DNA of 63,976 nt, the filler included, from Sanchytrium tribonematis (Eukaryota): NCBI GenBank assembly GCA_018985235.1. It is 8 parts of 8 records of this genome, joined end to end, with 100 filler letters (N's around TTAATTAATTAA, not from the genome) between each part and the next. Parts side by side here need not be neighbours in the genome. Positions count along the whole stretch, not along the records: positions 41,201 to 49,325 come from JADGIG010000394.1; positions 49,426 to 57,543 come from JADGIG010000395.1; positions 57,644 to 63,976 come from JADGIG010000533.1; 5 more parts are not named here. One strand, written 5' to 3'. A model generated the notes under the pieces. It saw nothing but the letters and a program-made list of their open reading frames with translations. It was not told where the DNA came from and searched no databases. Of this stretch, positions 41,344 through 63,976 are shown piece after piece. The stretch's first letter is position 1; the number at the start of each line of letters is the position of its first letter. Both the position numbers and the translations under genes were made by a program.

Positions 41344-43120
41344 ATGAATTTCTTTGCAACGACTTACAAGAAGGATGACAGCATCCCGCTAACAGTCAAT
41401 GCAATTTCTAGCCGTAAGAATTTATTATCGTATGACTACTACGATTCAAGACTTCACCATTGTGAACCTGCAAACAAGCAACTACAGGAAGAAAATTTAG
41501 GTGCTATTCTTTTTGGAGACAGGATTTATAATTCCAATTTTAAAATCACTATGCTAAATTCTAAAGAATGTGAACTGCTTTGTGAAGAAACCATAGGAGC
41601 TGAGGATTTTGGTTTTGTAATGAATTTAATAGAGGGACAGTACACAAACAACTGGTATATTGACCAACTACCGGTGCGAATATCCGAAAAAGCGAATACA
41701 AACAAATTAGAATTTTTAATTGGCAAAAAAGAAAATGAAGATTCAGCCAAGTTATTTAACCATTTTAGTTTAAACATTCAATATGTAACTGCAAGCGATG
41801 GATATCAAATTGTTGGAGCTTTTGTTGATCCAAAATCGGTATATAATGATCAGCAAAATTGTGGATCAAAAAGAAATTTTCCAATTCGTATCTATCGTAA
41901 TCGTAAAACGTCATTTCATTATTCCTATTCCGTTAATTTCGAAGAACGAACAGATATTGACTGGAGTCATAGATGGGATCAGTACCATCAAGCTGATTCC
42001 CTAAGCAATGTGCATTGGTTTTCTTTGATTTTTTCTTGCATTATTGTTTTCTTTTTATTGATTTTCGTAGGCATGGTACTTATAAAAAGTTTGAGAAATG
42101 ATATTGCGAAATATAATAGATTGAACGATCTGTCTGAAGAAGAAAGTGGATGGAAAGTACTTCACACTGAAGTTTTTAGAAATCCCGAGAGTAAGTCACT
42201 ATTGGCAATTCTTATCGGAAATGGTATTCAGCTGGGATTGATGGTCGGAGTTACTCTGATTTTTGCTGTCTTTGGATTTCTATCACCTGAAAAGCGTGGA
42301 CAACTTTTCACAATTGCGATTATATTTTATTTGCTATTTTCCGTTGTAGCAGGCTATTTAAATTCAAGAATTTATAAAATGTTTGGTGGAAAAGAATGGA
42401 AGTCAAATGCGATTCTAGGAGCTTTATTAGTTCCAGGATCCTATTTTCTATCTGTGCTACTTTTGAATTTTTTCTTGATATCAGCGCATTCTTCAAGTGC
42501 TGTTCCATTTGGGGCCATTTTAACTTTGTTTACATTATGGATTTTTGTAAGCACCCCATTAAATTTCTTAGGCGTTTTTTTGGGATTAAGAAAAGAGCGT
42601 ATCCTTGCTCCTGTGAGAACAAATCAAATCCCTCGGCAAATTCCAAGAGCTTCTTGGAGCCTTCGCCAGGTTCCATCATTTTTAATTTCCGGAATACTTC
42701 CATTTGGTTGTATATCAATTGAAACATATTTTCTTTTGAAATCAATTTGGTCAAATGAAATATATTATGTATTTGGCTTTATATATGTTGTGTATATCAT
42801 TCTTTTGACAACAAGTTCACTTATTTCTCTTCTCATGTGTTATGTTCAACTTTGTAACGAAAACCACTCATGGCAATGGCGCTCGTTCTACATCGGAGGA
42901 TCGTCAAGTTTTTACTTAATGGTGTTTTCAATTATTTATTACATCAAATTTATAAAAGCCTCTTCTTTCAGTTCAGCTGTGCTTTATTTTGGCTGGTCTG
43001 TTCTAATTTCTTTAACTTTATTTTTGATTACGGGTACAGCTTATTTATGAAGGATCGTTTGCATATTTCTTTTGTTTGATTTTTGTACGGAAAATTTATT
43101 CATCAGTAAAAATAGATTAG
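41344..43120 (+). CDS. EMP70: TM9SF/Emp70 nonaspanin; exons 41344-43033 and 43053-43120, 585 aa
   Basis: ENLGAILFGDRI, VHWFS, EESGWK, PVRTNQIPRQIP; splicing restores the conserved ..FVRKIYSSVKID* end. Confidence 0.95.
43034..43052 (+). other. 19-nt spliceosomal intron
   Basis: gtacagcttatttatgaag; removal gives ITG-SFAYFFCLIFVRKIYSSVKID. Confidence 0.92.
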
Positions 43121-43123
43121 CGC

Positions 43124-45974
43124 TTATTTCTTCCTTTTTTTCCGAGGTGCTTCTTCCTCGTCGCCGAGACGCATTCGTTTTCTATCGTCGTCTTCACGTG
43201 CCTTTTCTTCCAATTCATCCCAATCTAAGCCTTCTTCGCTGACTTCGCTTGCACTGACATCACTCTCTTGGGCACTGACATCACTTTCATAGCTCTCGCT
43301 ACTTTCAACTTCCTCCTCTTCGTCAGACAAGTCCTGCGCGTTTTCAAATTCGCTTCCACTTTCACTGGAATCCCCACCAGCATCACTTTGTTCTTGTAAA
43401 AATTCCCAACCACCATCTTCGAAAAATCCTTGTGGGCTTTCTCGGACAGTTTTCATAATTGCGGTCCAATTTAAAGATACAGGGCCCTCGGTAAAAGCTA
43501 TATTACAAGTGCTAAATAAATAAAAAGTACTCTAGCCACTCTCTAACCATTTCTAATTCAGTAGTAGGAATTGCTGTAATCTGAGTTATAGGCAGTGTGA
43601 AATCACGATAAATTATAACCATATCAAAATTTTTAAGGCCAAATTGAACTCTTTCCAAATGGACGACTTCGATCTCACGAATAGGAACTACTAAAAATGG
43701 AGGGTCTGTGAGATGTACTAAAAAATCACTAGTAGGTTGCATCAGAACAGAAGTTCGAAATGGTACACCTGTAAAGCCAAGTTCCCTAAAAGGGACGTCA
43801 ATTTCGACCGTATTTCCGCTCAATTCAACAATCTTTTCTCCAAATTGTTTGAACTCTCGATTGAGCTTGGCCTTTCTTCTCTTTTCCTCCTGCTCTTCTT
43901 CAAATTCATCATCAGCATACATTCCTCTTCTTCTTAATTGTGTTTCATCGTTCCCTTCACTTGTTTCTCTATAGAATTGAACATTCCTAGTTTTTTTCTT
44001 ATTAATCATAATGTGATCTTTGAGATAACAATGTAAAATAACGTAATTCTCATTATCACAAGGTTGAAAGAACATTACTTCAATATTACTAAACAGAATA
44101 TCTACCTTTGAGTTATTAAGCTCGCTTTTATATCGTAGTCCGTTGCTATGAATTTCCAGAGGCGACGAGACCTGCTTTCCCTCAGGTTTAGGTCTACATA
44201 GTACATCGCGTAGTCCCAAAGGTCTTCTACCCTTAACCTCAATTAATTTATCTTGTTCCACCAAATTGGCTTTGTCTTTCTGTTCAGCTTCTTTTTTTGA
44301 GACATTCCGTTTCAAATCAGTTATTTCCTTATAGATAGAATTAAATCGAACAGCATCTGAAGATCGGAAGGTCAAGGATCGCACAAATGTTGCACTGGAA
44401 TCTTCGTACGGAACCTCGTCTTTCTTTGAAACCTGGCCAGGTGTGATAAAATTTAAACGCAAATAAACATAGTCACTCTCTTCATTTTTTGAAATATTCT
44501 TTAATGTAGTTATGTGAAATGGTACGACTGTTCCACAAATTGGCAATAAAATGCTCTCGTTTCTAGTATCCACCATAATTTTCATTTTTATAGTCTCTCG
44601 TGGAAGCTGGTAGTCTCTTTTGTAGCTGTCAAATTTTTTCACGGCAGGCTGGTCGTTTTCTTGATCACCCGTAGCATCTCCTTTTCTGTGTCTTTTGAGA
44701 CCACGCTCTTGGACTTCAGCATAAAGTTGCTTTTGATGTATTCGGCGTTCTTGCTGTTTGCTTAGATCATCTTCCTGAACTCCACCATGGCGGGTTCTCT
44801 TGCGAGTGCCATTCATATTTCCAAAATCTAGATCCTTTTTGGTCATTTCTAGAGTCATGAACGACAGATCATATGGTAAATTGGTAAGCCTGCGCGATGA
44901 GGATGTCTCCACCACAATCGTGTCAGCCAGATATAAACTGTATGTCATATCTTTATCTCTTAAATTATTTAAACCCATAGTTAAGGTGAAAACCATGCCA
45001 GCTTCAATTTCTGCCTCACAATCACTTTTGAATTGATAATTTTTGTCCCTAAATTCTATGCCAAGCATAAATCCCAGACTTTTCAGAATGTGTGTTTCTA
45101 AGTTTTCATGTTTTTGACGGATGTATGCAACAAATTTTGTATAGATAGAACTACAGATGGCTCCTGGAACGATATTACTGAGCGCATACTCAAAAAGTTC
45201 GACCAAAATTCCATACATTTGAGTCTGTTGTTGTGTAGGTGCAGGAAGAAACGTTCTAGCTATGTTTGTGCAATAAGCCTGGTTACGGATTCCTAATTGC
45301 AGTACTACCGGGTATTCTTGATCCAAAAAGGATGAATTACTGACAGCAGAAGGTTTCAAATTGTATTCAGAAGTTTGGACAATAGGCAAGTAACAAAATT
45401 CTGAATCGGGAAATTGCTTTTCAATTAGTCTAGCTAATTGCATATGAGTGATTTTTCGCTTCAAATCTCCAAGAACATTTTTTGCTAACTTTATAGCATC
45501 GTCGACATCACTGCAGGCCTTGGCAATGTATCCGATCTCATCGTTTGTTTTAATGCTCAGATATTTGGATACAAAATCTTGCAAATCTTGAGAGTCTTTT
45601 CTCTGCAACCAGCTCTGAACTTTTTGAACAACAGTGTCGTCACTAGATTCACTCAGCACTCCGATTGTAGAAGGCAAATTTGCCAAATATTCGTCAATAT
45701 TTGAATAATCCTTTTCACGAGTTACGCATGAACCGAATGGTTCTAAAAGCTTACATTTTTTCGAAGATGCGTAAACCCTGAATTCAGTTTGAGAAACAAA
45801 CATCAAAGTATCCGGAAATTCATATTGCAACAACTTGACTTGTAAGGCTGATGTCTTTTGGTATGCAGCTTGAGACTTTCCATGTACAATAAGAATGTTG
45901 GGCATGCCATTATTTTTCAAGGCATCTTGCAAGTCTTTGAGCTCTTTGTGCACATGAGTCGCAGATATTGACAT
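43124..45974 (-). CDS. SPT16: FACT complex subunit Spt16; exons 45974-43531 and 43511-43124, 943 aa
   Basis: [30 protein letters not shown]; splicing restores [33 protein letters not shown] and the acidic tail. Confidence 0.96.
43512..43530 (-). other. 19-nt spliceosomal intron
   Basis: gtactttttatttatttag, phase 2 (GA|C = Asp). Confidence 0.93.
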
Positions 45975-46001
45975 ACCCGTGTATGGAAAATTTTGATAGA
46001 T

Positions 46002-46397
46002 TTATTTTTTAGGCCTTTTTGCTCCATACTTTGAGCGAGAGGTAATCCTACCTTCTACACCAACACAGTCCAGGGTTCCTCTACAAACAGTGTAATTAAC
46101 TCCGGGTAAATCTTTTGGACCTTTTCCTCTTATCAGAACAACAGCGTGTTCCTGAAGGGAATGACCAATACCAGGAATGTATGCCAAAACAGATCTTCCA
46201 GTAGAAAGACGAACTCTGGCGACTTTTCGATTTGCAGAATTAGGTTTCTTTGGACTTTGAATTAAAATTTGAGTTATGACTGCTTTCTTTTGTGGACACA
46301 AATTTAGGGCTGGTGAATTTGGCTTATTTGGAAAAGATTTCCGGATTCCTCTTATACACTGATTTAAAGTTGCTGCCAAAGATCTTGTAGATAGCAT
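46002..46397 (-). CDS. MRPS12: Mitochondrial ribosomal protein uS12m (nuclear encoded)
   Basis: [41 protein letters not shown]; presequence-like MLSTRSL. Confidence 0.92.
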
Positions 46398-46445
46398 TTC
46401 AGAATTTAAAATTGTGAGTGTATCAACACAAGAGGGGTTCTTAAG

Positions 46446-47292
46446 ATGACAAATCATTATGAACTATTTAAGAAACTTGGTGATTTAGACAGAAAAACTG
46501 TACCAACTATTGCCCCACAACACAAGGACAAAAATCGCTATTCCGACGTCCTACCTTACGATTTTAATCTAATTCAAGATATTCCATTTTATTTCAATGC
46601 CAGTATTATGAAAATTAGCGGCTTAAATACGGGATTTATTGCCACCCAAGGACCCATACCAAATACTTTTTCTGATTTTTGGAAAGTTTTGCATATTAAA
46701 GATATCAAAACTATTGTGATGCTAGTTGACGCGACACCTTTAGAAAGTCATAAAGTAGGAAATTGTCATGTCTATTGGCCAGAACAAGAACCATTTATAT
46801 CTGACAATGTAAATGTTCGTTTATTATCCAAATATATCTTATCTGAAAATTCTACAATTAAAAACAAATGTGATAATGTTATTGTGCGGACTTTTGAAAT
46901 TGATTATGATAACACAAAAAAAGTTGTTGAGCAGTTTCATTATCAGAATTGGGTTGACCGAAGCATTGTCGATAAATTGGAATTATTTCAATTTGTGAAA
47001 TTTTTTAATGAGTATATGGTTTTAAATAAAATGACCACTGATCCAATTGTACACTGTAGTGCTGGATGTGGGAGAACTGGAGTTTTCATTAACATTTACA
47101 CCGCCTACCTTCGCCTTCTTTCAAAATCTAGTAATATTGAAATTTTAACAAGCGATATCATAGAGTTCAGAAGTCAAAGAAGATATTTTGTTCAAACATT
47201 GGTATTATCAACTAATTAAGAAGCAACTAGACTTTATTTACGACATTTATTTGGAAATGGATAAAATGTTGAATGGCCAAGGAGAAAACTAA
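46446..47292 (+). CDS. Classical protein tyrosine phosphatase; exons 46446-47201 and 47221-47292, 275 aa
   Basis: [31 protein letters not shown] loop reads WVD; splicing restores Q-loop VQTLKQLDFIY. Confidence 0.92.
47202..47220 (+). other. 19-nt spliceosomal intron
   Basis: gtattatcaactaattaag with CTAAT branch motif; phase 0. Confidence 0.92.
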
Positions 47293-48484
47293 AAAAGGAA
47301 ACAAAAAAGCTGAAAAAGCAATAAATGAATTCAATATTTATAAACAACAAGATATGAAGTCTCAAAATGAATTATTGAATTTTGAGATAGATTTAGAATC
47401 TAAATTGTTGACTTTATCAGAAGTTAGAATGAAATATATCAAGGACACTACCAAAAATATTGAAGTTTGGAGGAATTCAAAGAATTCCACTAACTTGGTA
47501 AATCTCAAAACTAAATATGATAAATTGGAATTTGAAGCCGTTAATTTTGTGGATGTGACGCAAGAAAGATGTATATCGAACCTACTGGAAAGGCAAGAAA
47601 TCTCTCGAGAAGAGTTTGATGATTTGTTTGTAGATTTTTTACTTTTTCAACCTACTGAAATATCAGAATTCCAAGCACAATGTATTAGAAGGTACTTGCT
47701 TGGTGTTTCAAATTCAATTTATTCTTTTCCAATTGAAAATTTTGCAAATTTCGAATTCTTGCTGGTCCAAAACCACAATGTAAAGCGTTTACTCGATATT
47801 TTATGCGGCAAATTTATAAAAAAAGTTTTGATAATGAAAAACTTGAAGAAGGAATGGCATTCAAATTTGTCTATATTCAAATCAGCAGATGTGTTGATCT
47901 ATAATTTGTTAGATCTTAAAATTTTGGATTTTGAAAAAATAATAGCTCACCAAAACATTATGGTACTCTTAATTGAGTCTGTAGGGTTGACTGACACGTT
48001 TGAAGTTGTTAAAGACCAAAGTAGCTGCAAACTTATTTTACCCAACCAAAATGCATTAACTTTAACCACAGATAGAAAGTCGACAGATATTAAGCCCCTG
48101 GACGATCTAACATTTGGAATTGGCCTACTTGCTCTAATTTCGTCCAGTTTAAAATTCAAAAGGCTTTCGGAAATACATATTTCTTATTTGCTAGAAATAG
48201 AATTTGGAGATACTCATTTTTCTAAAATTTGTGAATATTTACAAATAAATCAAACCAAAAGTAATAGCAAGATACTCGTCGTAGAGTATACACCAGATTT
48301 TTTATGTGTAGGGAAAAGTGTTTTGATGTGCAAGGTTTCAAGTGGAGACAGCGAACTATTCATCCATATTTCAGGACTGCTTGAAATCTCGTTCAAGGCG
48401 GTCGAAGCAATGGGGTTGCAGGTGGAAGATTTGGGTATTGACTCTGACGCAATTGGAAGCAAATTGATCGAATACATCAAATAA
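47273..48484 (+). CDS. Hypothetical protein (403 aa)
   Basis: Long ORF filling the gap between conserved genes; family not recognised. Confidence 0.65.
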   Translation: MAKEKTKKGNKKAEKAINEFNIYKQQDMKSQNELLNFEIDLESKLLTLSEVRMKYIKDTTKNIEVWRNSKNSTNLVNLKTKYDKLEFEAVNFVDVTQERCISNLLERQEISREEFDDLFVDFLLFQPTEISEFQAQCIRRYLLGVSNSIYSFPIENFANFEFLLVQNHNVKRLLDILCGKFIKKVLIMKNLKKEWHSNLSIFKSADVLIYNLLDLKILDFEKIIAHQNIMVLLIESVGLTDTFEVVKDQSSCKLILPNQNALTLTTDRKSTDIKPLDDLTFGIGLLALISSSLKFKRLSEIHISYLLEIEFGDTHFSKICEYLQINQTKSNSKILVVEYTPDFLCVGKSVLMCKVSSGDSELFIHISGLLEISFKAVEAMGLQVEDLGIDSDAIGSKLIEYIK

Positions 48485-48494
48485 AGCGCAAACA

Positions 48495-49223: not shown

Positions 49224-49325
49224 TTCGACAAGAAACGGGGAGGAAATGGAAAATTTACTGGTACAAATTCAACAACCATTGACACCCCTGCCAGCAGTTG
49301 AACATGTATACAAAATCAAAAATGA

Positions 49326-49425
49326 NNNNNNNNNNNNNNNNNNNNNNNNNNNNNNNNNNNNNNNNNNNNTTAATTAATTAANNNNNNNNNNNNNNNNNNN
49401 NNNNNNNNNNNNNNNNNNNNNNNNN
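49326..49425. other. Artificial contig linker
   Basis: N44-TTAATTAATTAA-N44. Confidence 0.98.
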
Positions 49426-49427
49426 GA

Positions 49428-49757
49428 CTAACAATCCTTGTTTTTATATATTTTGTGTAAATAAATCCATTCATTGTAAATGTATTGTTCAAATAACTCC
49501 TTATTACCAGGCCAAGCAACTGTCCCCTTACATTTAGAACGAGCAATACTGACTGTCATAACAGAACCAGGGAATTTAAAGTCTTTCGTTTGACTTTTGA
49601 AAAAGGTTGATAAATCTTTTGTCAATTCTTGTTCGCTGTAGCCCGCATTTGTAATATCAACATACGTTTTAGCAATTATTGGGGCCTTATTTCCTGATTG
49701 TAACTTAAGGTTGAGTGTGTAAGCTGCTGCAAATAAAAGTGATAAAAACGCAATCAT
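49428..49757 (-). CDS. Small secreted protein
   Basis: MIAFLSLLFAAAY; N-terminus paralogous to the gene starting at 55723. Confidence 0.7.
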   Translation of the reverse strand: MIAFLSLLFAAAYTLNLKLQSGNKAPIIAKTYVDITNAGYSEQELTKDLSTFFKSQTKDFKFPGSVMTVSIARSKCKGTVAWPGNKELFEQYIYNEWIYLHKIYKNKDC

Positions 49758-50647: not shown

Positions 50648-53600
50648 ATAACACGGAGTATTACTGTAAAAAATGTCCTCCAGTAAAAATGTTATAAAGA
50701 AACCCCCAGGCCCTCTGCAGCCCGCAAACCTAGCAGAAATGGTTGACCCGAAGCAACTACAATGGTTATGTTGTCTAAAAGTCCAATCAACAATGTACAG
50801 AACAACTATGAGTGGATTGCCAGATACAAATCATATGCGACGCCAATTACTGAAAAAAGCAAAGATTAAGTCTGAAAATGTACGAAGATTTGAGTTTATT
50901 CATAATTGTAGATATTTGGAAGTCATCTGCACTCAAAGAGTTTTAGAGAAGATTCTAGAATATTTGAAAATAGAACTAGGAGGTACCCCTATTCAAATGG
51001 GAAGTTGGATCAAATTTATTAAATCACCTGGAAACAAATCATTATTCAAAAATGAAATTCTACGTCTTAAAGAAGATATGTTTGATGTCTCGTTGTCTAT
51101 CTTTAGTGAAACAAGATATGAAAATGATGTTACTAAGCTACTCGGCATTTTATGTGGTCAATTCGACACCAAATTTAACTATAAAGTACACATGAAACGT
51201 GTCAAAACCCAAATTGAAGAGGAAATGGTTAAAAAGGTACCAATCAAGAAACCACAATGTACCATTACATCGGATGCAGATGATGATGAGATGTTGGCCT
51301 TGATGACGGATTTAAATAGCCACAGTGTTGCTAATAAACATAAAGCAGACAAAATGGATGAAGATTTGGAAAGTTTGGACTTAAATACAACACCACCTGG
51401 AACTCATAATGATAAAAAGCGCAAATTGACTGATGATAGTCAGGTTTTAATCAGTTTTAACTTGACAAAGAATGGTCACCTAAACTATGAAACATGTGTC
51501 GAACAGTCAACAATTTACGACATCTGTGAAACATTTGATTACACCTACTTGATTTACAATCTGAAGAATACAAAGGATTTGCAACAAGAGGTGATTGGAG
51601 GAAGCTCAATTACAATAACTACTTGTGATTTGATTCACACAATCAAAGTTTCATTGTTTGAAGTGAATTATGATTTATTCGTACCTTCTGGTACTTTAGC
51701 TGGTCATATCATTCCTCCTTTGTACTGTGACACTGAAAAGTATTCAATCAAGATTGATAACTTGCCAATGACAGAAAATGATATGTTGCTTGATGATTTG
51801 AAAAGTGTTACTATTAGCTTAGTAAATAGTATTCAAACTTATCTTTGTGAAAAATCTCTATTTCTATACAATAACGAGTTTAAATTACATCAAGAAATCC
51901 AATGTTTCAAATACTTTGATAAGTGTCTATCTATAGTGCTCAATAATATTCAAATATTCATTTATTTTATTTTTTGGTGCCACTTGCTACCAACCAATGC
52001 CTTTAAAGTTCAATTTGGTGGTCAGAGTATCATTTTAGATGAGCCAGTGCATCTTGTACAGGATATTGCCATCTCTCTTTCTGCTAGGGGTATAGCTGCA
52101 GGAAATATCATATATAATGGTGATCAACTACCAATGGGTGAAACAATTACACCAGAGCATAGTGGTAGTGTCTATTACAAATTAAAGACACCTAATGAAT
52201 TAACAACTGTAACCACTAAAAATCGTAGTCTCAGAATTCTAGGATGGAATATTTGTGGTATCAAGCATAACGTCAACGACTTATTAGCTATCATTCAAGC
52301 ATTCGATTTAGATTTACTATTCTTGAGTGAATGCAAAGTTGCTCATGATTTTAAATTACCAACTAATTTTATTTATTATAACAAATCCAACTCTCCTTAT
52401 GGATGTGCTGTAGTATACAATAGTGAAAGATACTCTAGTGGAGATATAAACATAATTGGAAGTGAATATCACCTGCTCTTGAAATTGGAGTCTGTTGATA
52501 TTCTCTATGTTTATCGCAAACTCAGCACCAATTGTGTTGAATGGTATCACTCAATAAGACCAATGATATCCAATCAGGTGTTTTTATTCGGTGATATTAA
52601 TGTAAATACACTCCTCCCTTTGAATGTAAATCAATTGACCATGTTCGATCTCATGGCAATGGATGGATTATTTCATTTCGATATCGTTAGTGATTATTCA
52701 TTTTTACGAAATGGTGCCATTGGGTACCCAGATTTGGCGTTTTACAAGACCCAAACAAGTTATAAAGTCATTAGTGGCGAGTTCATGGATAGATTTGACA
52801 TATCAGATCATAAAGCAATGATATTTGAACTTGAATTGGATACTGAGAATGTAGTGATATTTCCTAAGATGCCGCGCTGGAATGTTAAGAAATTAAAAGA
52901 CGAACAGGTAGATTTTATCTTCAAACACGAGGAGGATCTAGAAATTATTAAAGACCAACAAGTAATAGAACAATATTTACTTGAATTTGATAATGATAAT
53001 GTACCGGGGCACCAGAGATATTCAGCATGTACCTCATTAGGTGATAAACTGGTAACAATACTCCATAAATCAGCTAATCATGCAATTGGTAAATCCAAGT
53101 TATTCCACGGAATTGACACACAGGTGCTACAAGATGCAACAACAGCACGTCTACGTGGTAACCATGACATAGCCAATCGTATAATTGACCTTTCTAGACG
53201 ACTGGCAATCAAGAAATACAAGCAGAAAGTGGATGATTTGGATTCCTGTCAATTTCTAAAAGTAGTGAATTTAGCCTCTAGAAGAAAAGGAGTGAGTAAA
53301 CAGCATTTAAATCGACTACGACTAGAACACCATTTTGCCCAATGGGATGGTAAATGGGATATGAAGGCTTTAAATCATGATGTATTTATCCCTGTAAAAC
53401 AAACAAATTCAATTTGGTCTGATTATACTTTCCATGAATTTAATACTATTATTAAGAATCTACCGGGTCATAAAGCAAGTGGACCGGATGATGTGCCTAA
53501 CGAGCTTCTTAAACATTCAAATGATCGATTCAAAATGGTGTTACTCAGATTTTTCAATATTATTGGTAAAACCGGAATAGTACCGGATATCTTTCGTTTC

Positions 53601-55579
53601 TCATCTATAATTCCCATTCATAAAGGAAAATCCGATGATTATGAGTCCATGACTGAGTATCGTCCAATTGGACTTTGCTCGATTCTCCGCAAGATGTTTG
53701 AAAAATTATTTAAACCCCGCTTGATGCCATTTTTACAGACTGGGGAGAATCAGTTTGGGTTCAAGCATGCAACCAGTTTATTAGATGCTGCTTGGTACTT
53801 TGAGTCCAAATTAATTGAGCTACAATACAATATAGACGATTATATAATGGTAAAAGGTGATTTAAAAGCAGCATTTGATTCTTGTTCTCATGAATCTTTG
53901 TTAGAAATGTGTAGAGCAGTAGAAATGCCTGAAAACTTTATATCATTAATTATCAATTTGAATCTACGTCAAAATATTAAGCTGACACTTGGAGATCAAT
54001 GCAGCAACTATAAAAGCATAAATCAAGGGGTTATTCAGGGAACAATTCTTAGTCCCAACCTGTTTACCAAATTGGTGGATTGGATAATGAATAATTTCAG
54101 TTTAATCTCAATCTGGTTCGCTGATGACTTACTGTTTATCGTTAGAAGGAGTGAATATGAAGCAAAAATGGCTGAATTAGTAGAATCCCTTGCTAAAATT
54201 GGTTTGAAATTTAACATGGCAAAAACTCACCCAATAACACAAGTATTTGAAAAATGGATAGGTTTGGAACTCAACCATTTGGGTACCAACACAGAACAAC
54301 AGATTAAAGCCAATTTAAAGAAAGCAAGAAATAGAATTCGTAATGCTCGTAATTCTGGTGTTTTTAATGGCGGCTATAAAAAAGAGCATTTATTACGATA
54401 TATTGGATCAGCAGTACTGCCCTTACTAGAGATGGGATTAGCTATTCATGAACCAATTTCAGATTTAGCTGCTAAGGTGGATGTATTCATAAATACAACA
54501 GTGCGAGATTTGGTTGGTATCCCGATTCATACGCCTGTAGATGATATTCGGTTTTTGACTGGTTATTGCTCATTTATGGATAGATGGACATCAATTAAAG
54601 TAAAATTTATAAACAAATTGAACTATCTGAGTGGATCTATGGATGATTTAGAGTATAGACCCAAAGCAAAGATGAGTTTTAGTCTTAATAAGAAACTCAA
54701 GAAATATATTAAAACCAACTCATCGATATTAAGAGTCTTCAAGAGATCTTATCCAAATGCTGTAGTGAATTGCAACAATTGTTCAAATAACCATGATTAT
54801 GCCAATCAAGTATACAAATGTCATAACTCGTTGATTTCCCAGCCAACAGCGAAATGCAATCGATTTGAGGGTAAAACAATTCTCTCCTTTCCAAATCAAT
54901 GGAAATCCATTATACAACAAAAACAAAGTACTTTACAAGATGAAGAATTACTCATAGTTACTGACGCCAGTTTACATGAAAATCCAGAGATTCAATCAAC
55001 AGGAGCCGCAGTTGTTTTATCCAAATCCAATATCCACATAAAAGCATACAATCTTAACACTTTACGGCCAGATGATAGTACACGTTGCGAAATAGCAGCT
55101 ATTGTTTGTATTTTAAAAGACATTAGCAAACTGCAACAGTATCAGAATTATACTATTCACCTACTTTGCGACAATACGAGTGCAATTAAATTGTGTGAGA
55201 AAGTACGTGATAAGACAGTCCCATTTTATAATATTTATTCGATAGATTTGATTAAAGAAGTACTAGACCAGTTAAATCGTGTAACATTTGAATATTTACC
55301 TGGACATGATGATGAGAATCCAGATTCTTTAAATCATCTTTGTGACTATTTTACACATGCTCATGACATAGCATCACAACCACCAATAGAATTACGAATC
55401 AACGATAAATGGAAACAAACAGCAGCACCATCAAAAGAGGTCTTTAGACTAGCTCATGTGGTATCTTCACATACAAATGAGAATGTGTTATTAGAGATCT
55501 TCAGAGAAATACATAGCAATTGTATCCCAGCGACTTAGTAGCCGTCATTTACAAGAGTAAAACCTCAATAAATAATTAA
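50648..55579 (+). mobile_element. Full-length single-ORF non-LTR retrotransposon
   Basis: Flanked by a 14-bp TSD; 25-nt 5' UTR; ~41-nt 3' UTR ending aataaataattaa. Confidence 0.92.
50673..55538 (+). CDS. LINE polyprotein: N-terminal region, APE endonuclease, reverse transcriptase, Cys/His motif, RNase H
   Basis: APE: GWNICG, LSECK, GDIN, SDHKA; RT: ASGPDDVP, YRPIGL, QFGFK, DLKAAFD, GVIQGTILSP, FADD; RNase H: VTDAS, CEIAA, LCDN, LPGH..N..CD. Confidence 0.95.
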   Translation: MSSSKNVIKKPPGPLQPANLAEMVDPKQLQWLCCLKVQSTMYRTTMSGLPDTNHMRRQLLKKAKIKSENVRRFEFIHNCRYLEVICTQRVLEKILEYLKIELGGTPIQMGSWIKFIKSPGNKSLFKNEILRLKEDMFDVSLSIFSETRYENDVTKLLGILCGQFDTKFNYKVHMKRVKTQIEEEMVKKVPIKKPQCTITSDADDDEMLALMTDLNSHSVANKHKADKMDEDLESLDLNTTPPGTHNDKKRKLTDDSQVLISFNLTKNGHLNYETCVEQSTIYDICETFDYTYLIYNLKNTKDLQQEVIGGSSITITTCDLIHTIKVSLFEVNYDLFVPSGTLAGHIIPPLYCDTEKYSIKIDNLPMTENDMLLDDLKSVTISLVNSIQTYLCEKSLFLYNNEFKLHQEIQCFKYFDKCLSIVLNNIQIFIYFIFWCHLLPTNAFKVQFGGQSIILDEPVHLVQDIAISLSARGIAAGNIIYNGDQLPMGETITPEHSGSVYYKLKTPNELTTVTTKNRSLRILGWNICGIKHNVNDLLAIIQAFDLDLLFLSECKVAHDFKLPTNFIYYNKSNSPYGCAVVYNSERYSSGDINIIGSEYHLLLKLESVDILYVYRKLSTNCVEWYHSIRPMISNQVFLFGDINVNTLLPLNVNQLTMFDLMAMDGLFHFDIVSDYSFLRNGAIGYPDLAFYKTQTSYKVISGEFMDRFDISDHKAMIFELELDTENVVIFPKMPRWNVKKLKDEQVDFIFKHEEDLEIIKDQQVIEQYLLEFDNDNVPGHQRYSACTSLGDKLVTILHKSANHAIGKSKLFHGIDTQVLQDATTARLRGNHDIANRIIDLSRRLAIKKYKQKVDDLDSCQFLKVVNLASRRKGVSKQHLNRLRLEHHFAQWDGKWDMKALNHDVFIPVKQTNSIWSDYTFHEFNTIIKNLPGHKASGPDDVPNELLKHSNDRFKMVLLRFFNIIGKTGIVPDIFRFSSIIPIHKGKSDDYESMTEYRPIGLCSILRKMFEKLFKPRLMPFLQTGENQFGFKHATSLLDAAWYFESKLIELQYNIDDYIMVKGDLKAAFDSCSHESLLEMCRAVEMPENFISLIINLNLRQNIKLTLGDQCSNYKSINQGVIQGTILSPNLFTKLVDWIMNNFSLISIWFADDLLFIVRRSEYEAKMAELVESLAKIGLKFNMAKTHPITQVFEKWIGLELNHLGTNTEQQIKANLKKARNRIRNARNSGVFNGGYKKEHLLRYIGSAVLPLLEMGLAIHEPISDLAAKVDVFINTTVRDLVGIPIHTPVDDIRFLTGYCSFMDRWTSIKVKFINKLNYLSGSMDDLEYRPKAKMSFSLNKKLKKYIKTNSSILRVFKRSYPNAVVNCNNCSNNHDYANQVYKCHNSLISQPTAKCNRFEGKTILSFPNQWKSIIQQKQSTLQDEELLIVTDASLHENPEIQSTGAAVVLSKSNIHIKAYNLNTLRPDDSTRCEIAAIVCILKDISKLQQYQNYTIHLLCDNTSAIKLCEKVRDKTVPFYNIYSIDLIKEVLDQLNRVTFEYLPGHDDENPDSLNHLCDYFTHAHDIASQPPIELRINDKWKQTAAPSKEVFRLAHVVSSHTNENVLLEIFREIHSNCIPAT

Positions 55580-55593
55580 ATATGGTTTTGTAT
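55580..55593 (+). repeat. Target-site duplication, right copy
   Basis: atatggttttgtat. Confidence 0.9.
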
Positions 55594-55908
55594 CGATGAT
55601 ATAATTATAATGTGAGACATTTTTTGTATTTTTAAGACGGTCATCCATTTCGGTTATTGTATTCCTGTATTCCAATTTGTAATTGAATGCAGCTGCAAAT
55701 AATAATGCGACGAATGCGATCATGTACTACATTAGATCCGATTCCCTTTTATGGCGAGCGTGCAATACACGCAACAACTTGCACAAATCAAAGTATTTTT
55801 TTAAATTACAATCATTAATTTAAAAGACTTGCACGACTTGCAGGGGTAAATCCGTTTACCAGGACGTGACATTTCCCAAATACATTTGTTATGCTCGTCA
55901 GAATTTAT

Positions 55909-56112
55909 TTAAATCGGATATTGACAGCCTCTACAACCAAGAATAATATTCTCAATAAAATGAGAATATGCTTTTTTTCGACCAGCATCATATGATACAG
56001 TGGTTGTACATTTTTTGTTATTTGTATACGTAATCATAACGAGTACATTGCCTGTTTTATCACCAACATACTCTATAACATCTTGTCTAATAGTTTGCCA
56101 TTTGAATGTCAC
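55909..56112 (-). pseudogene. 3' fragment of a small secreted-family gene lacking its start and signal peptide
   Basis: KCTTTVSY..KK.YSHFI..GC pattern resembles 49428-49757 and 49936-50226; no upstream ATG or hydrophobic leader. Confidence 0.4.
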
Positions 56113-57042
56113 TTAAAGTCATTTATGAATGAAACCAATTGAATTTCATTTGTCAAATTGTCTAATAAATGAATCCTATCTGGAAATGGGAAAACATATG
56201 AACCAAAATCATTAGATCTCATCAAACGAGTCTTGAGATCATTATTGAAAGATGTCGACATTATTTACGTTATTGGAACACATTGCAGTAATGTTGTGAA
56301 TAGACCAAAGACAAAGCAACAAATGTGGCAATAATCAAAAGAATGATGAGACTGGTAAAAATTCAGATGGTTCAAGGAACCAATCAATTTAATCTACTTC
56401 AAATCCAATTCAAAAGAAATTGATCTCTCTCCAAACAATGTCATTTATGTCATTTAAATCACCAAATGCCCCATATGACTTGCAATTCTCAAGTACATAG
56501 ATCTTGATTGCTTCATCATCAATATATGGCTGCACAAATATTCAAACTTGCATTTAAACCAGTAGCATAATCATTAATTGCACCATGATCCTTGTCAACA
56601 ATTTGGATAGCAAATTTAAAACATTCTATTACCAAATTTGATTCACCAAATAGATCTTGCTCGTGTATGTCCATCTGACTGATACTATTTGTGTCAAATG
56701 GTCAATTTATCATTAATTGTATGATTGAAATTTATCAAGTGTTTTATTTTAATCATCCCATGACTAAAATAGAATGATGTGACTGTGGAATTGATTGAAT
56801 TGTATGGATATGGTGAGATTGTAATCATGTTTATGAATGAACATCCTGAATTATTTAGTGATGTTGACTTATTACAAAGATTTGATAATAATTCAATTTC
56901 ATTCATGGGGATTGAGAGAGATGGTGTGATTAAAATAAATGTAGTTTACTTGCGACTCGATTGTCTAGCCATTTGGATTAAAGCAAATAATCTTGAGTGC
57001 ATTTTATGCATTAACTAGAGAGGTTTAAAGTACACATCACAT

Positions 57043-57294
57043 TTATTTATTTCCTTTTTGGGCGTCTTCGATAATATCCTCAATCTGGCGTAGCATTTCG
57101 GCTCTAATCGCATCATATTTTTTGACAGCGGCTTCTTTTTCAGCTTGAACCTTTTCGATCGCTTTCACTAGACTACCAACGTCATCGTCTTCGATACCAT
57201 GTCGCGCAGCAAATTTTTTCACCTTTCTTAGATCAACAGGACTTTCTGGACCATCTTCATACATTCCAAATACAATCCATAATACAATCAACAT
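57043..57294 (-). CDS. Small secreted coiled-coil protein
   Basis: MLIVLWIVFG then a charged helical region. Confidence 0.6.
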   Translation of the reverse strand: MLIVLWIVFGMYEDGPESPVDLRKVKKFAARHGIEDDDVGSLVKAIEKVQAEKEAAVKKYDAIRAEMLRQIEDIIEDAQKGNK

Positions 57295-57543
57295 GGAGGA
57301 TGGACATCAATTTTCTTTTAATACAAAGTGGGGTACCACGTGGTCGCACATCATTTGTTTTCAGACAATTGATTGGCAGAAATGACAAAAGGAGACAAAA
57401 TAATCATGTTGCACAGAATACAATCAAATTTCCATTGATTGAATCAATTCTTGTGGTATCCATTCAATCCATTTCTCATTTAATGAAAAGACATTCTCTG
57501 TAAAATACAAATCATGAAATTCACTAGGCAATTGATTTTTCCA

Positions 57544-57643
57544 NNNNNNNNNNNNNNNNNNNNNNNNNNNNNNNNNNNNNNNNNNNNTTAATTAATTAAN
57601 NNNNNNNNNNNNNNNNNNNNNNNNNNNNNNNNNNNNNNNNNNN
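57544..57643. other. Artificial contig linker
   Basis: N44-TTAATTAATTAA-N44. Confidence 0.98.
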
Positions 57644-57644
57644 A

Positions 57645-60600
57645 ATTGCAGACAAGTATAGCGACGAGCAACTCGACATATTATTAGGTGAAATGGTCCA
57701 ATCGCAAAGCCTTCCTAAAGATACCATCGACAGACTACGGGACCTTCCGAGAGATTCTAAGCTGACTTTGTTAAATAAGCATTTGAGTGATAAAGATTCA
57801 ATCATGGACACGCCTGATCAATACATACAGGCCGTACTCCGTAAGCCACTGAAAGAAATTGGCAAATTGAGAGTTGCATTAAATACCAAGCCTGTGTCAT
57901 TTGTTGTTGAATTTGCGAACAAAAATGGACTGTCAGTCATTAAAGATATTTTGTGGGATTCTATCACATATTTTGTGCTAGAAGCCGATTATTATAGCAG
58001 AACAAAAGACGATCATCCATTTTTAGTTTATAAGTCCAAAGTATCGAGGGAGCATTGTGATAAGCTTTCTTACGAAGCCTCTCAATGCGTCAAGCCTTTG
58101 ATAAAGTTGCAGGATATCTTAAAAATGATTTTGACGGACGACAACATTTTAACATTATTATGTTTGTATACCAGTTTCGGAAGTTATCTAACTCGAAAAA
58201 TCGCTTGCGAAACACTAACAATTATTATTTACTACGACGGTACACTGGTTGGCAAGATTTTGCAATCATTTTCCAATGCGATTGAAATTCAGTGCTCGTT
58301 GTTGAGACAACATTTTCGACACCCAGGAGAAAATCAAGCCAATGTATACAATGTCTTAAAAGAAAATAAGATGTCCAATAGCCCATTTGAGCTATGGATT
58401 GGATCTTTGGATAGCGTTTTATTGGGACGAGGAATTTTAGGTAGTAAAGTTCAAAGCAACTTGCTCGACAATATGACCGATGACCAATTAAATGATTTCA
58501 CTCTTTCTAATTGGATATTGATAAATGGGCTTTTGAGAGTGCCCGTTTCTATACCATTGAAAATACATATACGTAATCTATTTATTCATGCTAATTTAAT
58601 CAAAATTATTGACCAATCCAATAATATGAATAACGAATTAATAGGTTGGCAACTTAAACAATACAGGGAGGATTCCAAACTAGACCAAAAGTGGTTTGAT
58701 GATACCAATCGTTTAAAAATGGAAGATTTCTCGGATCCATCAGAATGTTTAGATTTTCTGTTACGTCAAACTGAAAAATATCCATCCGCTTATTTTTGGC
58801 TGACAAGAATAATGCAGACTCTGACACTCATTCGGGATGATGAAGGAAATAGCTTCGATGTCAGGCACAGTTATTTGAAGTTGATCGCAAATATTGTCGA
58901 GAAAATTGTACTAGATGGGCACGGAATTGACCCTTCATTCACAGATTTGTACGGAATATCGGTATCATCAATAATAGAAGGACTCGCAAACCAGGAACAG
59001 TTGGATAATTTGAAAAGCGATTTAAAAGATTCAGAAATTAAGTTAACCTTACTTAAAAAGGAAAAAGCTAAAACTGAAGTTCGCTTATCATTATCAGATG
59101 AAAACACTAAAGCACAGTATTTGCAAACAATTGATCACCTTAAGGACCTTTTAAACATCTCGCAATCGAACTCAGAAGCACTCAAGGATCAACTTAAGGA
59201 ACAAGATGAAAAATACAGATCAGTTCTAAAAAATCACGATCATCACTTGGAGAAACTTTTAAAGGCTTTAAAAGAAACTAATGATTTAAAGCAACTCGAT
59301 CAAATGAATGAAATGCTCGACAACGATTTTAAAAACCATTTTCCTGCAAGGGAAATAATAAGCAACCCTAATGAACAATTCGAATCGTTGAAAAGTGAAA
59401 ACGCCCGTTTAAGAGATCAATTGAAAATACTTAAGCATAGACAAAATGCGATCGCACCATTATCTTTGCAAGAACGGCCAGAACAACCAGCAAATGATTC
59501 TGAAGAAAGAAATATCATGCAACAACGCGGTCTGACAGTAAAGGTTCAGCCGCTTTCAAAAACAGAAGAGAAAATTATAGAGAAAAAAGAATCCGAAAAA
59601 TCATTGCCACCTCCACCATCTGCAGTGGGTCTCCCGCCACCACCACCACCTCCTCCTCAACAGAGTACCTATGTTAAACGATTTAGACCAAAAACTCAGC
59701 TTAGGCAGCTCAATTGGGAAAAAATTCCTGAGCATGCAGCTAGAGAGACAATATTCTCTGTCTTGTCCGTAGATGATGCTTCAAATAATTTAGAAGATAA
59801 ACTAGATAAAGAAAATGTTTTCCAAAGTTTGGAAGCCATGTTTGGCGTGAAAGCTTCACCTATTTCGCGAGAACATAGTGACTCTAATGTCAGTGAGGGA
59901 AGTGGAGACAAATTGTTTGTTATCTCGGTCTCAATGAATGAAACTGAATTTAAACCTGGACAAGAGATAAGCATGCTAGATCCGAAAAAGGCTTATAATG
60001 TTAATATCATGTTGCAAAGGATAAGGAATATAACTGCATTCGAAATCAAACAAGCTGTTATTGAAATTAATAAGGACATTTTGAGCCCATTACTCATTCA
60101 ACAGCTTAACAAGTTTATGCCTACACCGAAAGAAATAGGGAAATTACAAGCTTTTAAACATAACAGAAAAAATTTAAGTAAGGCGGACAATTTTTTCATT
60201 GAAATGTTAACAATTCCTAGATTTCAAAAAAGACTAGAGCTTATTGAGTTTAGTTATCTATATCAAGAAAGAGTATCAGATGTTGAAAAGTTTATAAATG
60301 TACTAAATAATGGCTGCTTGGAACTAAAAAATTCGTCGGCATTCCGAAAAGTGTTGGAAATGGTTTTGGCATTAGGAAATTTCATGAACTCTGGTTTTAG
60401 AGGAGGGGCTATAGGATTTAAGATTACAAGCATCAATAAGCTCTCGGATACCAAATCATACGACAATTCCACCACATTGCTTCATTTTTTGGCCAAAATA
60501 ATTAGACAAAAATTTCCCGAGGCGCTTAGTTTCATTAAGGAATTCAACATGGTCAACGATGCCTGCAGGATAGATCTCAATCATAGCAAGCAAGAATTAA

Positions 60601-61056
60601 TTGGATTAAAAAAAGGTCTAGAGGATGTGAATGACGAAATAGATATATTGTCTCTGGAAAGTGAGTTTGATGTCTTTAAGAAGAAAATGAGCGAATTTTA
60701 CGATATTACTTTTGTACAAGTCAACACTTTGAATGAAAAATTTAGAGCTGCTGAAAAATTATTTAAGGAAACCTGCAAATTGTATGGAGAAAATCCGGCC
60801 AAAATCAGTTGCGAAGAATTTTTTGGAATTTTTAGCACTTTCAAAGTGTCTTTTGAAGTACAATCTATTTATTTAGCGTGCAATACAAGATATAGAACTG
60901 GAGGAAGCCCCTGTGCCAATTGCAAAACCGCTAGTATTCCAAAAAAGTGTTTCATCTAATCCCATAGAACCAAATACTGACACCGCAGAAATAGATTTGC
61001 TGCTCGAATCATTAAAAAAAGGACACGCTGTATTGAAAAAAGATATGAAAAAATAA
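57645..61056 (+). CDS. Diaphanous-related formin (GBD/FH3, coiled coil, short FH1, FH2, DAD); probably 5'-partial; exons ..60857 and 60877-61056
   Basis: LRVALNTKPVSFV, poly-Pro, LRQLNWEKI, LGNFMN..GFKITSINKL; splicing restores the DAD motif IDLLLESLKKG. Confidence 0.93.
60858..60876 (+). other. 19-nt spliceosomal intron
   Basis: gtacaatctatttatttag, phase 0; FE-RAIQD.. Confidence 0.9.
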
Positions 61057-61058
61057 AT

Positions 61059-61860
61059 TTATACTTTTTGTAAATTGAGTTCCCTGGAAGTGACAAGCCG
61101 TGCGTCAACTTCTTTAAAATCAACATCATCATCTTGAAATCGAAGTTTATAGGCGTTTCGTTTATAACCAGATGGAGGCAAGATAACTTGAGCTTTATAC
61201 AACTACATAAGAATGAATTACCGATGTCGTGTCAGGATATACAGCATAAACAATCCTGCCAGTCTCCATTTCGGGCCACTTCAATGGGTAGTCTAAATCA
61301 TCTGGGCGTAATACATCTAGATCGTTTGCCTCATTTGGAAGCTGCAATATTTCTGAAGCTTTTAGATCCGTCAATAAAGAGCCTTCTGAATCATAATCTC
61401 TAATATTATATCGAAGATCCGCGGACAGCTCAGTCATATTCGCAACGTGAACTTTATCGACATAACCTAATATCCATAGATCAGAATTTCGAACAGCTAC
61501 CAGATCATTTAGCTTGATACTTTTGTGAACATTGCAGTAGATGGGGCCAGATTTGATTGGCAAATCGAGTTTCGCCTTTTTTGATGGTTTGGTAGCCAAT
61601 TTAGATGCGTCATGTCTCGGTTTTTTATTTGTGGTAGCAACAACCTTAGTGGACAGCCTGCGCTTTGGTTTACTGGTTAGACTTATAAGCACGCTGTCAT
61701 TCAAAATGTTGTCGCCTCGAAATCTTGCGTCATATTCAATGAGTTGTATAGTTCGTTGTATTAATTCGCCTAGTTTATACAAGTCTTCAGAGTCATTTGT
61801 AGCTCTACACTCAATATTATATGCTTCCAAATCTTGCAATCGTTTGATCAAAGACTGCAT
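61059..61860 (-). CDS. SGF29: SAGA subunit Sgf29-like tandem Tudor protein; exons 61860-61222 and 61202-61059, 260 aa
   Basis: VAVR..WILG, YNIRD; spliced VYAVYPDTTS-LYKAQV..YKLRFQDD matches second Tudor. Confidence 0.82.
61203..61221 (-). other. 19-nt spliceosomal intron
   Basis: gtaattcattcttatgtag, phase 0. Confidence 0.9.
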
Positions 61861-61907
61861 GGACAAAACAAGGGGCAAATTTGATCAGTCATTAAAAATT
61901 GAAGAGT

Positions 61908-63976
61908 TTATTTGCCGTAAATTTTGTCAAATCTTGTTACCATTCTCTCAACCAGCAAAATCTGATAACTGCTGTGCATAGCAGTTTCCATGGTTTCTTG
62001 TTCTGGTCTTAAAATATTAGGCCCAATTACAATTCCGAAATTATTTGCATCCATCTTAGTTGCCTCTTTGTAAACACTCATTTTTTGAATATGGATTGAC
62101 AAAACTCTTAACGTCTCTTTGTTTGCAGCTGGCAACTTACTTATAGCGTCCTTCAAATCTTTATCAAAGACTGAATCATCTGTTCCTTCTAAATCAGAAT
62201 AAATGTACTAAGAATGTTGATAAATTTGTTATATTCGCTAAAAGGTATCAACGGGTTTGGTAATTGTCTCAAGAAAAGCTTTATAATTCCAGTGACATTA
62301 TTTACATCTGCAAATAATGAATTTGAAAATTCAGGGAAAAAGTCTGGACTGTCTTCCAACAACTGCTTAATTTTTTTGATCTCATCACTGTTTCCAGATA
62401 AACGATAAATTCCAACAACATCTTTACCTTTTTGTTCCACTAAGGCGAATCCCTTTTCTAAGAGCAAGGGAATTTTACGATTTTTTTTTGTAGTGACATT
62501 TTCCAGAGGAACGCCAAATACAACAGGATCTTTTTCAATTACCATGGTAGCACGTTTAGCGGCTGGCATACTTGCCAATTCTTCTTCTCTTCGCTTTCTT
62601 TCATCTTCGATTCTTTTCTCCTCATCTTCTCTGGCTTTTTTCTCTTCTTCTTCTTTTTTAACAACTGCAAATAGCGAAGATTGTGCCCCTCCAGTTGGAC
62701 CTTGCTTCTTTTCTTTTTTGGGGAAAAATTGTGACATTTCATTTGGAGGTACGCTATCAGTATACTTGGTAGCATTCTTTTGAAGAGCCTCAAATAAGGG
62801 GGCAAATTGATCGGCTTTTTCTACATTCAAATAAATTTGAAAGCCTACATCAGAATATACGGTGATGACTTCTGATCCCAGTTTTGTATTCTTTTTTTGC
62901 ACATAGCCACCTCTAATATCTAAGATTCCAAGAACCTTTGGTGCTTTTTTCTTTGTAGGTTGTTCTGGAAAGAAAAATAAAAAACCCTCAGACATTTGAA
63001 TAAAATATGTACTCCATTTTAAAGCTTTTAATTGAGTGCCGTCGGCTAAACCCCTAGTGATTTTATACACTGTTCCCTCAAAATCTATCCCCCATTGTGA
63101 AATAACCTCGTATTTGAAGGAATCGAGATTATCCAAAAATTTATGAAAAGTTTCGTGTTCTTGTATTATTTTGCCGTTTTCGTCTTCCAACTGGACTTCA
63201 TTTGGATCGATCGCTTGAACTTTTTTGCCCATACCCATGAATCCTTTAGACTTTTTTTCAGTTGTTGTTTTGATATCAGGAAGATCCACAACAGGGCTGA
63301 CTGCTGGAGCATTGGATAAACCGGTCGGCAAAACAAGTTTAGTATTTAACTGCATTCTAACACTTCCTACGTCCCCAGGGATTTTCTTTTGTAATGCTTC
63401 TAGTTCCGTGTCTTTAGTTGATGATGTGTCAGAATTTTGTCCGGCTTGTGTCGAAGAAGCCGCAAAAGTTTTTGGTCTTTCTCCTACTGGAGAGGCATTT
63501 GGCAAAACAATTCGGTTCTGCATATTTTTTATATTGCTAGTAGGCTCGACCTTGGGTTTTTCAAGAACAGGTGCGCTTTGACTTTCTTGCAATCTTTTCT
63601 GCATTTCCTTGATGCTATTTTTCTTCGGTTCTTCCGCTGGTTTTATTTCTAAGTTGGTTGAAATCGGTACTGGATTCTGAATAGTTTCTTTTACTTCTAA
63701 CTGTACCACACTAACAGATTTAATAGATTCTTTTAAATCATTAGTAAGGGGAACTGTGGATATATGTACATGTTCTTGTACCTCTACGTTTTCTTTTGCA
63801 GATTTTACACTGCTATGACTTATGGATTTTTTCAAATCTAAATCTTTGTTAGAGTGAGCCGAATTGATACTTGACGAACTCGGTGCCTTATTTAATTTGT
63901 CAGAACTAACGATAGGAATACTATCAACGACGATCTGAACCTGGTTTTCGACAACAGCAATTGCTTCTGTTTCCAA
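61908..63976 (-). CDS. PH + RhoGAP domain protein, 5'-partial; exons ..62209 and 62188-61908
   Basis: VFGVPLE, GIYRLSG (Arg finger), IKLFLRQLPNPL; second exon KMDANNFGIVIGPNILR. Confidence 0.92.
62189..62208 (-). other. 20-nt spliceosomal intron
   Basis: gtacatttattctgatttag with CTGAT branch motif; phase 1 (A|AA = Lys). Confidence 0.9.

Follow-up and report, generated by a model that had tools for sequence, protein, structure and literature searches.

The closest described counterpart of the gene anatomy considered here comes from outside the fungi. In the heterotrich ciliate Fabrea salina, introns are extremely enriched toward the 3′ ends of genes, which has been attributed to preferential loss from the 5′ side (PMC13685798; genome, PMC9004412). 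A streamlined genome in which most genes are intronless, introns of tiny size whose branch-point adenosine keeps a fixed place, and 3′ enrichment are features that F. salina has in common with the locus in question, a stretch of 63,976 nucleotides from Sanchytrium tribonematis (assembly GCA_018985235.1; the whole stretch is called “the window” below), in which eight introns of 19 or 20 nt are predicted, each near the 3′ end of its coding sequence. The ciliate differs in its 15-nt introns, of which there are 5156 in 32% of its genes and possibly several per gene (PMC13685798, PMC9004412), whereas the present case concerns a fungus, with introns of 19–20 nt, at most one per gene, and an apparently absolute distance from the stop codon.

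Tiny spliceosomal introns are also known from Stentor, Loxodes, Mikrocytos and the chlorarachniophyte nucleomorphs (PMC9505925, PMC11441545, PMC10245619), all of which resemble the window in a near-uniform minimal intron size. In Stentor, the branch-point adenosine is likewise the sixth base from the 3′ end and most genes are likewise intronless, but its introns are 5′-biased (PMC9505925), and none of the four groups is a fungus. Within the fungi, Cryptococcus shows mRNA-mediated intron loss that tends to spare the 3′-terminal intron; however, its genome is intron-rich, it keeps 5′ introns, and its losses are 3′-biased (PMC2395259). Intron-poor yeasts and microsporidia have reduced fungal genomes with few introns as well, which in microsporidia are also short. 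The known lower limit for microsporidian introns is 23 nt, and we know of no fungal introns as short as 19–20 nt. The initial annotation of the window contrasted its 3′-located introns with the 5′ bias of yeasts and microsporidia, a contrast that holds, except that the pattern can no longer be called unprecedented with F. salina as a precedent (PMC13685798).

Neither sanchytrid introns nor a fungal genome with a 3′ intron bias turned up in the literature searched, which was mostly open access and included part of the supplements of the sanchytrid genome paper (PMC8371127). In the accessible text of that paper, the word “intron” occurs once, in a reference title, and the same is true of PMC10459994. 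The window likely represents a convergent fungal case of 3′-biased tiny introns that is unreported in the searchable literature.

Eight Predicted Introns Near the 3′ Ends of Genes

Among 48 non-transposon genes in the window, eight carry one predicted intron each and 40 carry none, which amounts to 0.17 introns per kb over the 46 kb of coding sequence surveyed. The proposal of one intron per gene, always near the 3′ end of the coding sequence, is therefore right about position, while the count has to read “at most one.” Two of the introns lie in genes for LRR/FNIP membrane proteins on the plus strand, one at 15059–15077 (phase 1, 245 nt from the intron to the end of the stop codon) and one at 25595–25613 (phase 1, 266 nt). 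The EMP70/TM9SF gene (41344–43120, plus strand, two exons) is interrupted at 43034–43052 (phase 1, 68 nt), and its stop codon lies 3 nt from that of SPT16 (43124–45974, minus strand, two exons of 2444 and 388 nt), which has its intron at 43512–43530 (phase 2, 388 nt). A protein tyrosine phosphatase (PTP) gene of two exons follows (46446–47292, plus strand; intron at 47202–47220, phase 0, 72 nt). The remaining three introns are found in genes for a formin (57645–61056, plus strand, cut at its 5′ end by the contig start, two exons visible; intron at 60858–60876, phase 0, 180 nt), for SGF29 (61059–61860, minus strand, two exons; intron at 61203–61221, phase 0, 144 nt), and for a RhoGAP protein (61908–63976, minus strand, cut at its 5′ end by the end of the window, two exons visible; intron at 62189–62208, phase 1, 281 nt). 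Like the formin and RhoGAP genes, the second LRR gene is truncated at its 5′ end.

These eight coding lengths agree exactly with those of the initial annotation, and its long uninterrupted first exons are borne out (2444 nt in SPT16, 1690 nt in EMP70, and ~3.2 kb in the formin gene, counted from the contig start). RPL23 (6071–6487, minus strand) and RPL27 (6626–7039, plus strand), which had been called intronless, are each a single complete open reading frame (ORF). What does not hold is the span of 41344–63976 given for the pattern, since the two LRR introns (15059 and 25595) and both ribosomal protein genes fall outside it.

All eight predicted introns are of the GT–AG type, seven of them 19 nt and one 20 nt long, and all conform to the consensus GTA…YTNAT-NN-AG, which places the putative branch-point adenosine six bases from the 3′ end. 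Beyond these splice signals, they have no common sequence. When both strands of the window were scanned for GTA…YTNAY-NN-AG at a length of 17–24 nt, 21 matches were obtained; the seven matches of 19 nt and one of the two matches of 20 nt are in sense orientation, close to where long ORFs end.

Evidence for Splicing

The eight segments are predicted to be spliceosomal introns, mainly on the grounds that their removal restores the reading frame in every case, either rejoining a split domain or regaining a conserved terminal domain or motif. In the RhoGAP gene, the break divides the Pfam profile into positions 1–84 and 94–147 of 148, and in SGF29, the Tudor profile is divided into positions 16–95 and 92–129 of 132. 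The SPT16_C domain is encoded entirely within exon 2 of SPT16, and exon 1 of the PTP gene covers positions 1–222 of 234 of the Y_phosphatase profile. In its spliced form, EMP70 gives a gapless alignment with the C-terminus of its family and regains the last helix, ending in the KxD/E motif that is present in 110 of 119 homologues. The second exon of the formin gene contributes a DLLLESL-type motif that is aligned in homologues, and those of the two LRR/FNIP paralogues each add a hydrophobic helix and a basic tail, which align with each other. Codon usage favors the spliced frame in seven of the eight second exons, including that of the PTP gene, and is uninformative for the 21 codons of EMP70. 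Taken alone, five of the eight second exons gave no match in a Pfam search, and a homologue search with SGF29 returned the query alone.

The hexamer AATAAA lies beside six of the eight spliced stop codons, compared to none of the eight stop codons reached by reading through. Contigs from X1, a DNA sequencing run possibly of the source sample, span the six introns within their range without any gap; five of these are bridged in single pieces of more than 5 kb among those listed, and the PTP intron in a piece of 670 nt. Among the variants listed (40 of 84), 24 fall within SPT16, and all of them are synonymous in the spliced frame, including all four in exon 2. An assembly or sequencing artifact was considered and is not supported, as the X1 contigs bridge the sites without gaps and the breaks recur in distinct relatives.

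In these relatives, proteins were predicted without splicing, which turns an intron into a break point. Spt16 breaks off at the intron site of the window in all three sanchytrid-like relatives whose sequence reaches it (Amoeboradix gromovi and two relatives from ENA; P0002, P0003, P0018), while that of a further relative (P0004) ends before the site. EMP70 breaks off at the same residue in the single relative available (P0020), and formin at the same site in one cluster of two (P0140/P0290), where 1068 codons run from the initial methionine to the break. RPL27, by contrast, is a complete ORF of 137 residues in A. gromovi and three other relatives. Searches of viral, metagenome, and genome contigs with the sanchytrid Spt16 alignment and of genome or viral contigs with RPL27 yielded no sanchytrid loci. 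The published sanchytrid proteins were themselves predicted with TransDecoder on contigs, and unspliced ORFs suffice for a BUSCO completeness of ~92% in both published genomes (PMC8371127). Among the A. gromovi annotation rows listed in supplement file 4 of that paper, PRP8, RPB1, TOR, MDN1, TRA1, and BRR2 occupy one ORF row each.

The same annotation shows that A. gromovi encodes Prp8, Brr2, U1-70K, both U2AF subunits, BBP, CBP20, NCBP1, and Mago, whereas no row for the U1-C KO is present among the rows listed (PMC8371127, supplement file 4). An Rfam scan, in which small nuclear RNAs were looked for in the window only, gave no match. The introns would presumably be removed by the major (U2-type) spliceosome.

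Chance and Detection Bias

The coding-sequence fraction that follows the intron ranges from 0.04 to 0.24. Under a uniform position within the eight genes, and with no cut-off applied, the Fisher-combined p value is 0.0038. The probability that all eight introns fall within the last 388 nt, a cut-off set post hoc, is 6.6 × 10⁻⁴ over all coding bases and 1.3 × 10⁻⁵ if calculated gene by gene. These values are conservative because three of the intron-bearing genes are cut at the 5′ end; on the other hand, the two LRR paralogues may reflect a single event, which would reduce the effective sample to seven. The intron-to-stop distance stays between 68 and 388 nt while the genes range from 0.8 to more than 3.4 kb, which implies that the introns are anchored to the 3′ end rather than to a fraction of gene length.

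For introns that carry the same signals, detection bias does not account for this distribution. In a leave-one-out test with a weight matrix that is blind to position, each of the eight introns outscores all 576 other GT…AG 19- and 20-mers in the window (584 candidates), the lowest score being 3.6, near the top of the background, and the PTP intron the weakest of the eight. The window contains 3200 GT…AG segments of 16–26 nt, of which 186 would lengthen an ORF; among the latter, the motif scores of the eight introns are 8.4–15.7, compared to 4.2 for an alternative PTP acceptor and 2.9 for the best 5′-type candidate. No comparable site was found in the 5′ or middle parts of genes when the window was scanned with the motif of the eight introns, a scan that differently signaled introns would escape. 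Conserved intronless genes have their Pfam profiles fully covered in one ORF. In sum, the 3′ position bias is real in the window.

The initial annotation had cautioned that stop-free introns of 18 or 21 nt, or introns directly after the start codon, would be invisible. This concern is eased by the motif scans and the lack of any 5′ site. One of the 18- and 21-nt matches, an in-frame 18-mer in EMP70 (41617–41634), was aligned and rejected as an intron, as it matches homologues without gaps and is coding. The EMP70/TM9SF protein (start at 41344, plus strand) has no N-terminal signal peptide of the kind found in fungal homologues, and the same is true of relative P0020. A hidden 5′ exon for this signal peptide was rejected: an in-frame stop codon lies 18 nt before the ATG, no AG occurs in between, and P0020 has the same start.

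Ancestry of the Introns

The age of the SPT16 intron can be approached through a comparison set of the best 80 of 485 metagenome loci, many of them redundant. Two of these, L023 (36 nt) and L079 (80 nt), have an intron that matches in codon (residue 892) and in phase, and the other 78 lack it. In a quick tree of 19 of the 80 loci and 13 Spt16 proteins, L023 joins the chytrid Polychytrium (support 84) and L079 stands beside that group (83), both outside the sanchytrid clade. Since the site is shared with two non-sanchytrid fungal loci, it predates the sanchytrids and was retained rather than gained. For EMP70, the annotated proteins of Gonapodya, Mucor, and Endogone (3 of 119) part ways with the family consensus directly behind the same TG, which indirectly suggests that this intron may be old, too.

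Other fungal Spt16 loci have recurrent intron sites at residues 62, 90, 135, 186, 538, 596, and 656, all of which are uninterrupted in the window gene; four of these empty sites lie 135–441 nt from the ATG. The intron at residue 186 occurs in 24 of the 80 loci, L079 among them, which supports its loss from the window lineage. L079 (110–2242) also has an uninterrupted central exon of 2.1 kb between its introns at residues 186 and 892, and part of the long first exon in the window would accordingly be ancestral. Retention of 3′ introns, one of the two origins that had been suggested, is supported by the shared SPT16 site together with the missing residue-186 intron. New gain, the other one, is at odds with the SPT16 data and, weakly, with the three fungal EMP70 proteins.

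Proposed Coupling of Terminal Splicing to 3′-End Formation

In 34 of 48 genes in the window, AATAAA occurs between −15 and +46 nt relative to the stop codon, compared to 78 of 3847 coding windows (2%), and often overlaps the TAA stop codon or is built from it. This pattern suggests strict, animal-like use of the poly(A) signal with almost no 3′ untranslated region (UTR). As AATAAA adjoins the stop codon, the 3′ UTRs are predicted to measure tens of bases and the terminal exons to be short. Intron and predicted poly(A) site are separated by roughly 90–450 nt, whatever the length of the gene, and a signal is found near the last 3′ splice site in most cases: in addition to the six spliced stop codons with AATAAA, a seventh has TATAAA, and EMP70 alone has neither. 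Definition of the terminal exon in coupling to polyadenylation, as the initial annotation proposed, would fit this anatomy.

The explanation tentatively preferred here, at slightly less than even chances, is that the eight introns are old leftovers of wholesale loss, which were spared since poly(A)-proximal splicing is likely coupled to 3′-end formation and aids it. The 5′ and internal introns would have been removed precisely, probably by recombination with complementary DNA (cDNA), for which the intact reverse transcriptase (RT)-encoding ORF at 50673–55538 is a possible source. The survivors would have shrunk to a functional minimum in which branch point and acceptor are fused, and a filter would have favored those introns whose last exon and very short 3′ UTR (roughly 90–450 nt) can be bridged by contacts between 3′-splice-site factors and the cleavage and polyadenylation machinery. 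In vertebrates, U2AF and U2 make contact with the 3′-end machinery. A terminator-proximal intron can enhance transcription in yeast (PMC8287100). A stronger version, in which the sanchytrid spliceosome is nearly limited to the terminal intron, with all 19–20-nt introns within ~400 nt of the poly(A) site and splicing dependent on 3′-end processing, appears unlikely.

Several observations weigh against retention through 3′-end coupling. The sample comprises eight introns, at most seven of them independent, from 46 kb of coding sequence, and 40 of the 48 genes do without an intron, which means that an intron, if of benefit, is dispensable. Genes with an intron are longer than those without (p = 0.001), short genes having none, which a pure filter on distance to the poly(A) site does not predict. 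The 5′ bias of the tiny introns of Stentor indicates that being small is not enough to confine an intron to the terminal position. In the A. gromovi annotation, the cap-binding complex (CBP20, NCBP1) is kept, which leaves no evident loss by which 5′ introns would be disadvantaged, and loss of this complex as the cause of the bias was rejected for the same reason. In the same annotation, BBP occupies two ORF rows on one contig (PMC8371127, supplement file 4), which may reflect a more central intron or a frameshift. With regard to SPT16, residue 186 is the sole 5′ loss backed by sharing across distant groups, and the other sites may be younger; the placement of L079 is weak (SH-aLRT 83, in a quick tree); and L023 seems, by eye, to carry two further introns 3′ of residue 892 that are absent from the window gene, indicating that not every 3′ intron survives.

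Alternative Explanations

A close rival, possible though rather doubtful, dispenses with selection: if introns were erased by recombination with poly(A)-primed cDNA, an intron in the last ~400 nt of a gene, followed by a 3′ UTR of tens of bases, could have too short a downstream homology arm for efficient conversion, and introns further upstream would be lost. AATAAA beside the stop codon implies very short 3′ arms, the window holds an intact RT-encoding element, SPT16 aligns without gaps at the lost sites (residues 62, 90, 186, 538, and 656) as precise loss predicts, intron losses in Cryptococcus frequently exclude the 3′-terminal intron (PMC2395259), and the dearth of introns in short genes fits as well. 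However, the argument from arm length, together with RT fall-off, would lead one to expect 5′ introns to be shielded to at least the same degree, yet none was found, and the SPT16 sites 135–441 nt from the ATG are empty. Self-priming of RT on U-rich tracts was also considered and rejected, as no such tract lies near any of the eight introns. Coupling to 3′-end processing is favored because the simple mutational model also predicts 5′ survivors, which are missing.

It is improbable that the bias, real in the window, is weak genome-wide, with 5′ and central introns that are weaker or of another build present elsewhere. The small number of introns, a motif trained on the same eight, a lowest leave-one-out score (3.6) close to the top of the background, three intron-bearing genes without 5′ ends, and the possibly split BBP of A. 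gromovi would all allow for such a sampling skew. It would have to be reconciled, though, with p values from 0.004 to 10⁻⁵ under uniform position, with complete Pfam coverage in one ORF for conserved genes, with the 1068 uninterrupted codons of a relative's formin up to the intron site, and with the ~92% BUSCO completeness that unspliced ORFs reach in two sanchytrids (PMC8371127).

A role for neighboring genes is very improbable. Where intergenic space is nearly nil, introns might serve as non-coding islands that harbor the antisense AATAAA of a convergent neighbor or the AT-rich promoter of a gene overlapping downstream; five of the eight intron-bearing genes face a convergent neighbor 2–18 nt away, the reverse complements of several introns contain AATAAA, and AATAAA is missing around the EMP70 stop codon. 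However, most convergent neighbors carry a signal of their own at the stop codon (SPT16, formin, TspO), the branch-point consensus by itself gives rise to the antisense AATAAA, and many convergent pairs are intronless. Least probable of all is that sanchytrids gained the introns anew at 3′ positions. One could invoke for this two introns in lineage-specific LRR genes and five of eight positions without comparison to other fungi; against it stand an SPT16 position common to L023 and L079, the departure of the Gonapodya, Mucor, and Endogone EMP70 proteins at the same TG, and the fact that the eight introns share only splice signals.

Genomic Context

The window consists of eight contigs of ~8.1 kb, successively shorter, with 30–37% G+C. 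They are joined by artificial N-linkers (8149–8248, 16392–16491, 24632–24731, 32867–32966, 41101–41200, 49326–49425, and 57544–57643), which makes neighborhood across these spacers meaningless. Sanchytriomycota are algal parasites with small genomes (PMC8371127), and the window belongs with them: sanchytrid Spt16s form one long-branch clade with a support of 100 in the quick tree, the Spt16 of the window is 77% identical to that of A. gromovi compared to 42% for the best chytrid, and its RPL27 falls into one 90% cluster with A. gromovi.

Genes in the window abut or overlap; the last PTP exon and the start of the next gene, for example, overlap by 20 nt. SPT16 and a tyrosine phosphatase are also found on one contig in the A. 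gromovi annotation (PMC8371127, supplement). Over 41201–46405, the haplotype of run X1 differs at 48 of 5205 bases, and the contig at 57644–63976 is mostly near-invariant. The RT-encoding element at 50673–55538 (plus strand) is an intact ORF of 1622 residues with endonuclease and RT domains, resembling a long interspersed nuclear element, and is followed by AATAAA; on both sides, near 49757 and 55726, it is flanked on the minus strand by what look by eye like the starts of related genes for small secreted proteins. A retroviral-type aspartyl protease ORF at 23259–24631 (plus strand), cut by the contig end, is probably a fragment of a long terminal repeat retrotransposon. At 29108–32761 (plus strand), six short Cys-/Ser-rich proteins are encoded in tandem, with hydrophobic C-termini that by eye resemble glycosylphosphatidylinositol anchor signals; a TGATTG(G) motif lies within ~60 nt 5′ of every ATG in this array.

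Implications

The standard case for poly(A)-primed RT-mediated loss is built on the 5′ bias that introns show in intron-poor genomes, a bias confounded by selection in favor of promoter-proximal introns. With a fungal lineage biased in the opposite direction, the two come apart, and public sanchytrid assemblies make mutational and selective models testable. If true genome-wide, the pattern would be the second of its kind, independent of that in the ciliate Fabrea. For the sanchytrids themselves, there is a practical consequence as well: as the published proteins were predicted unspliced (PMC8371127), affected ones would have no C-termini. The parts missing from unspliced predictions include the acidic domain of Spt16, half of the RhoGAP domain, part of the SGF29 Tudor domain, the KxD end of TM9SF, and the formin tail, and such C-terminal truncation can be mistaken for domain loss when reductive evolution is studied. 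A spliceosome reserved for terminal introns, if true, would be the mirror image of the situation in yeast and microsporidia.

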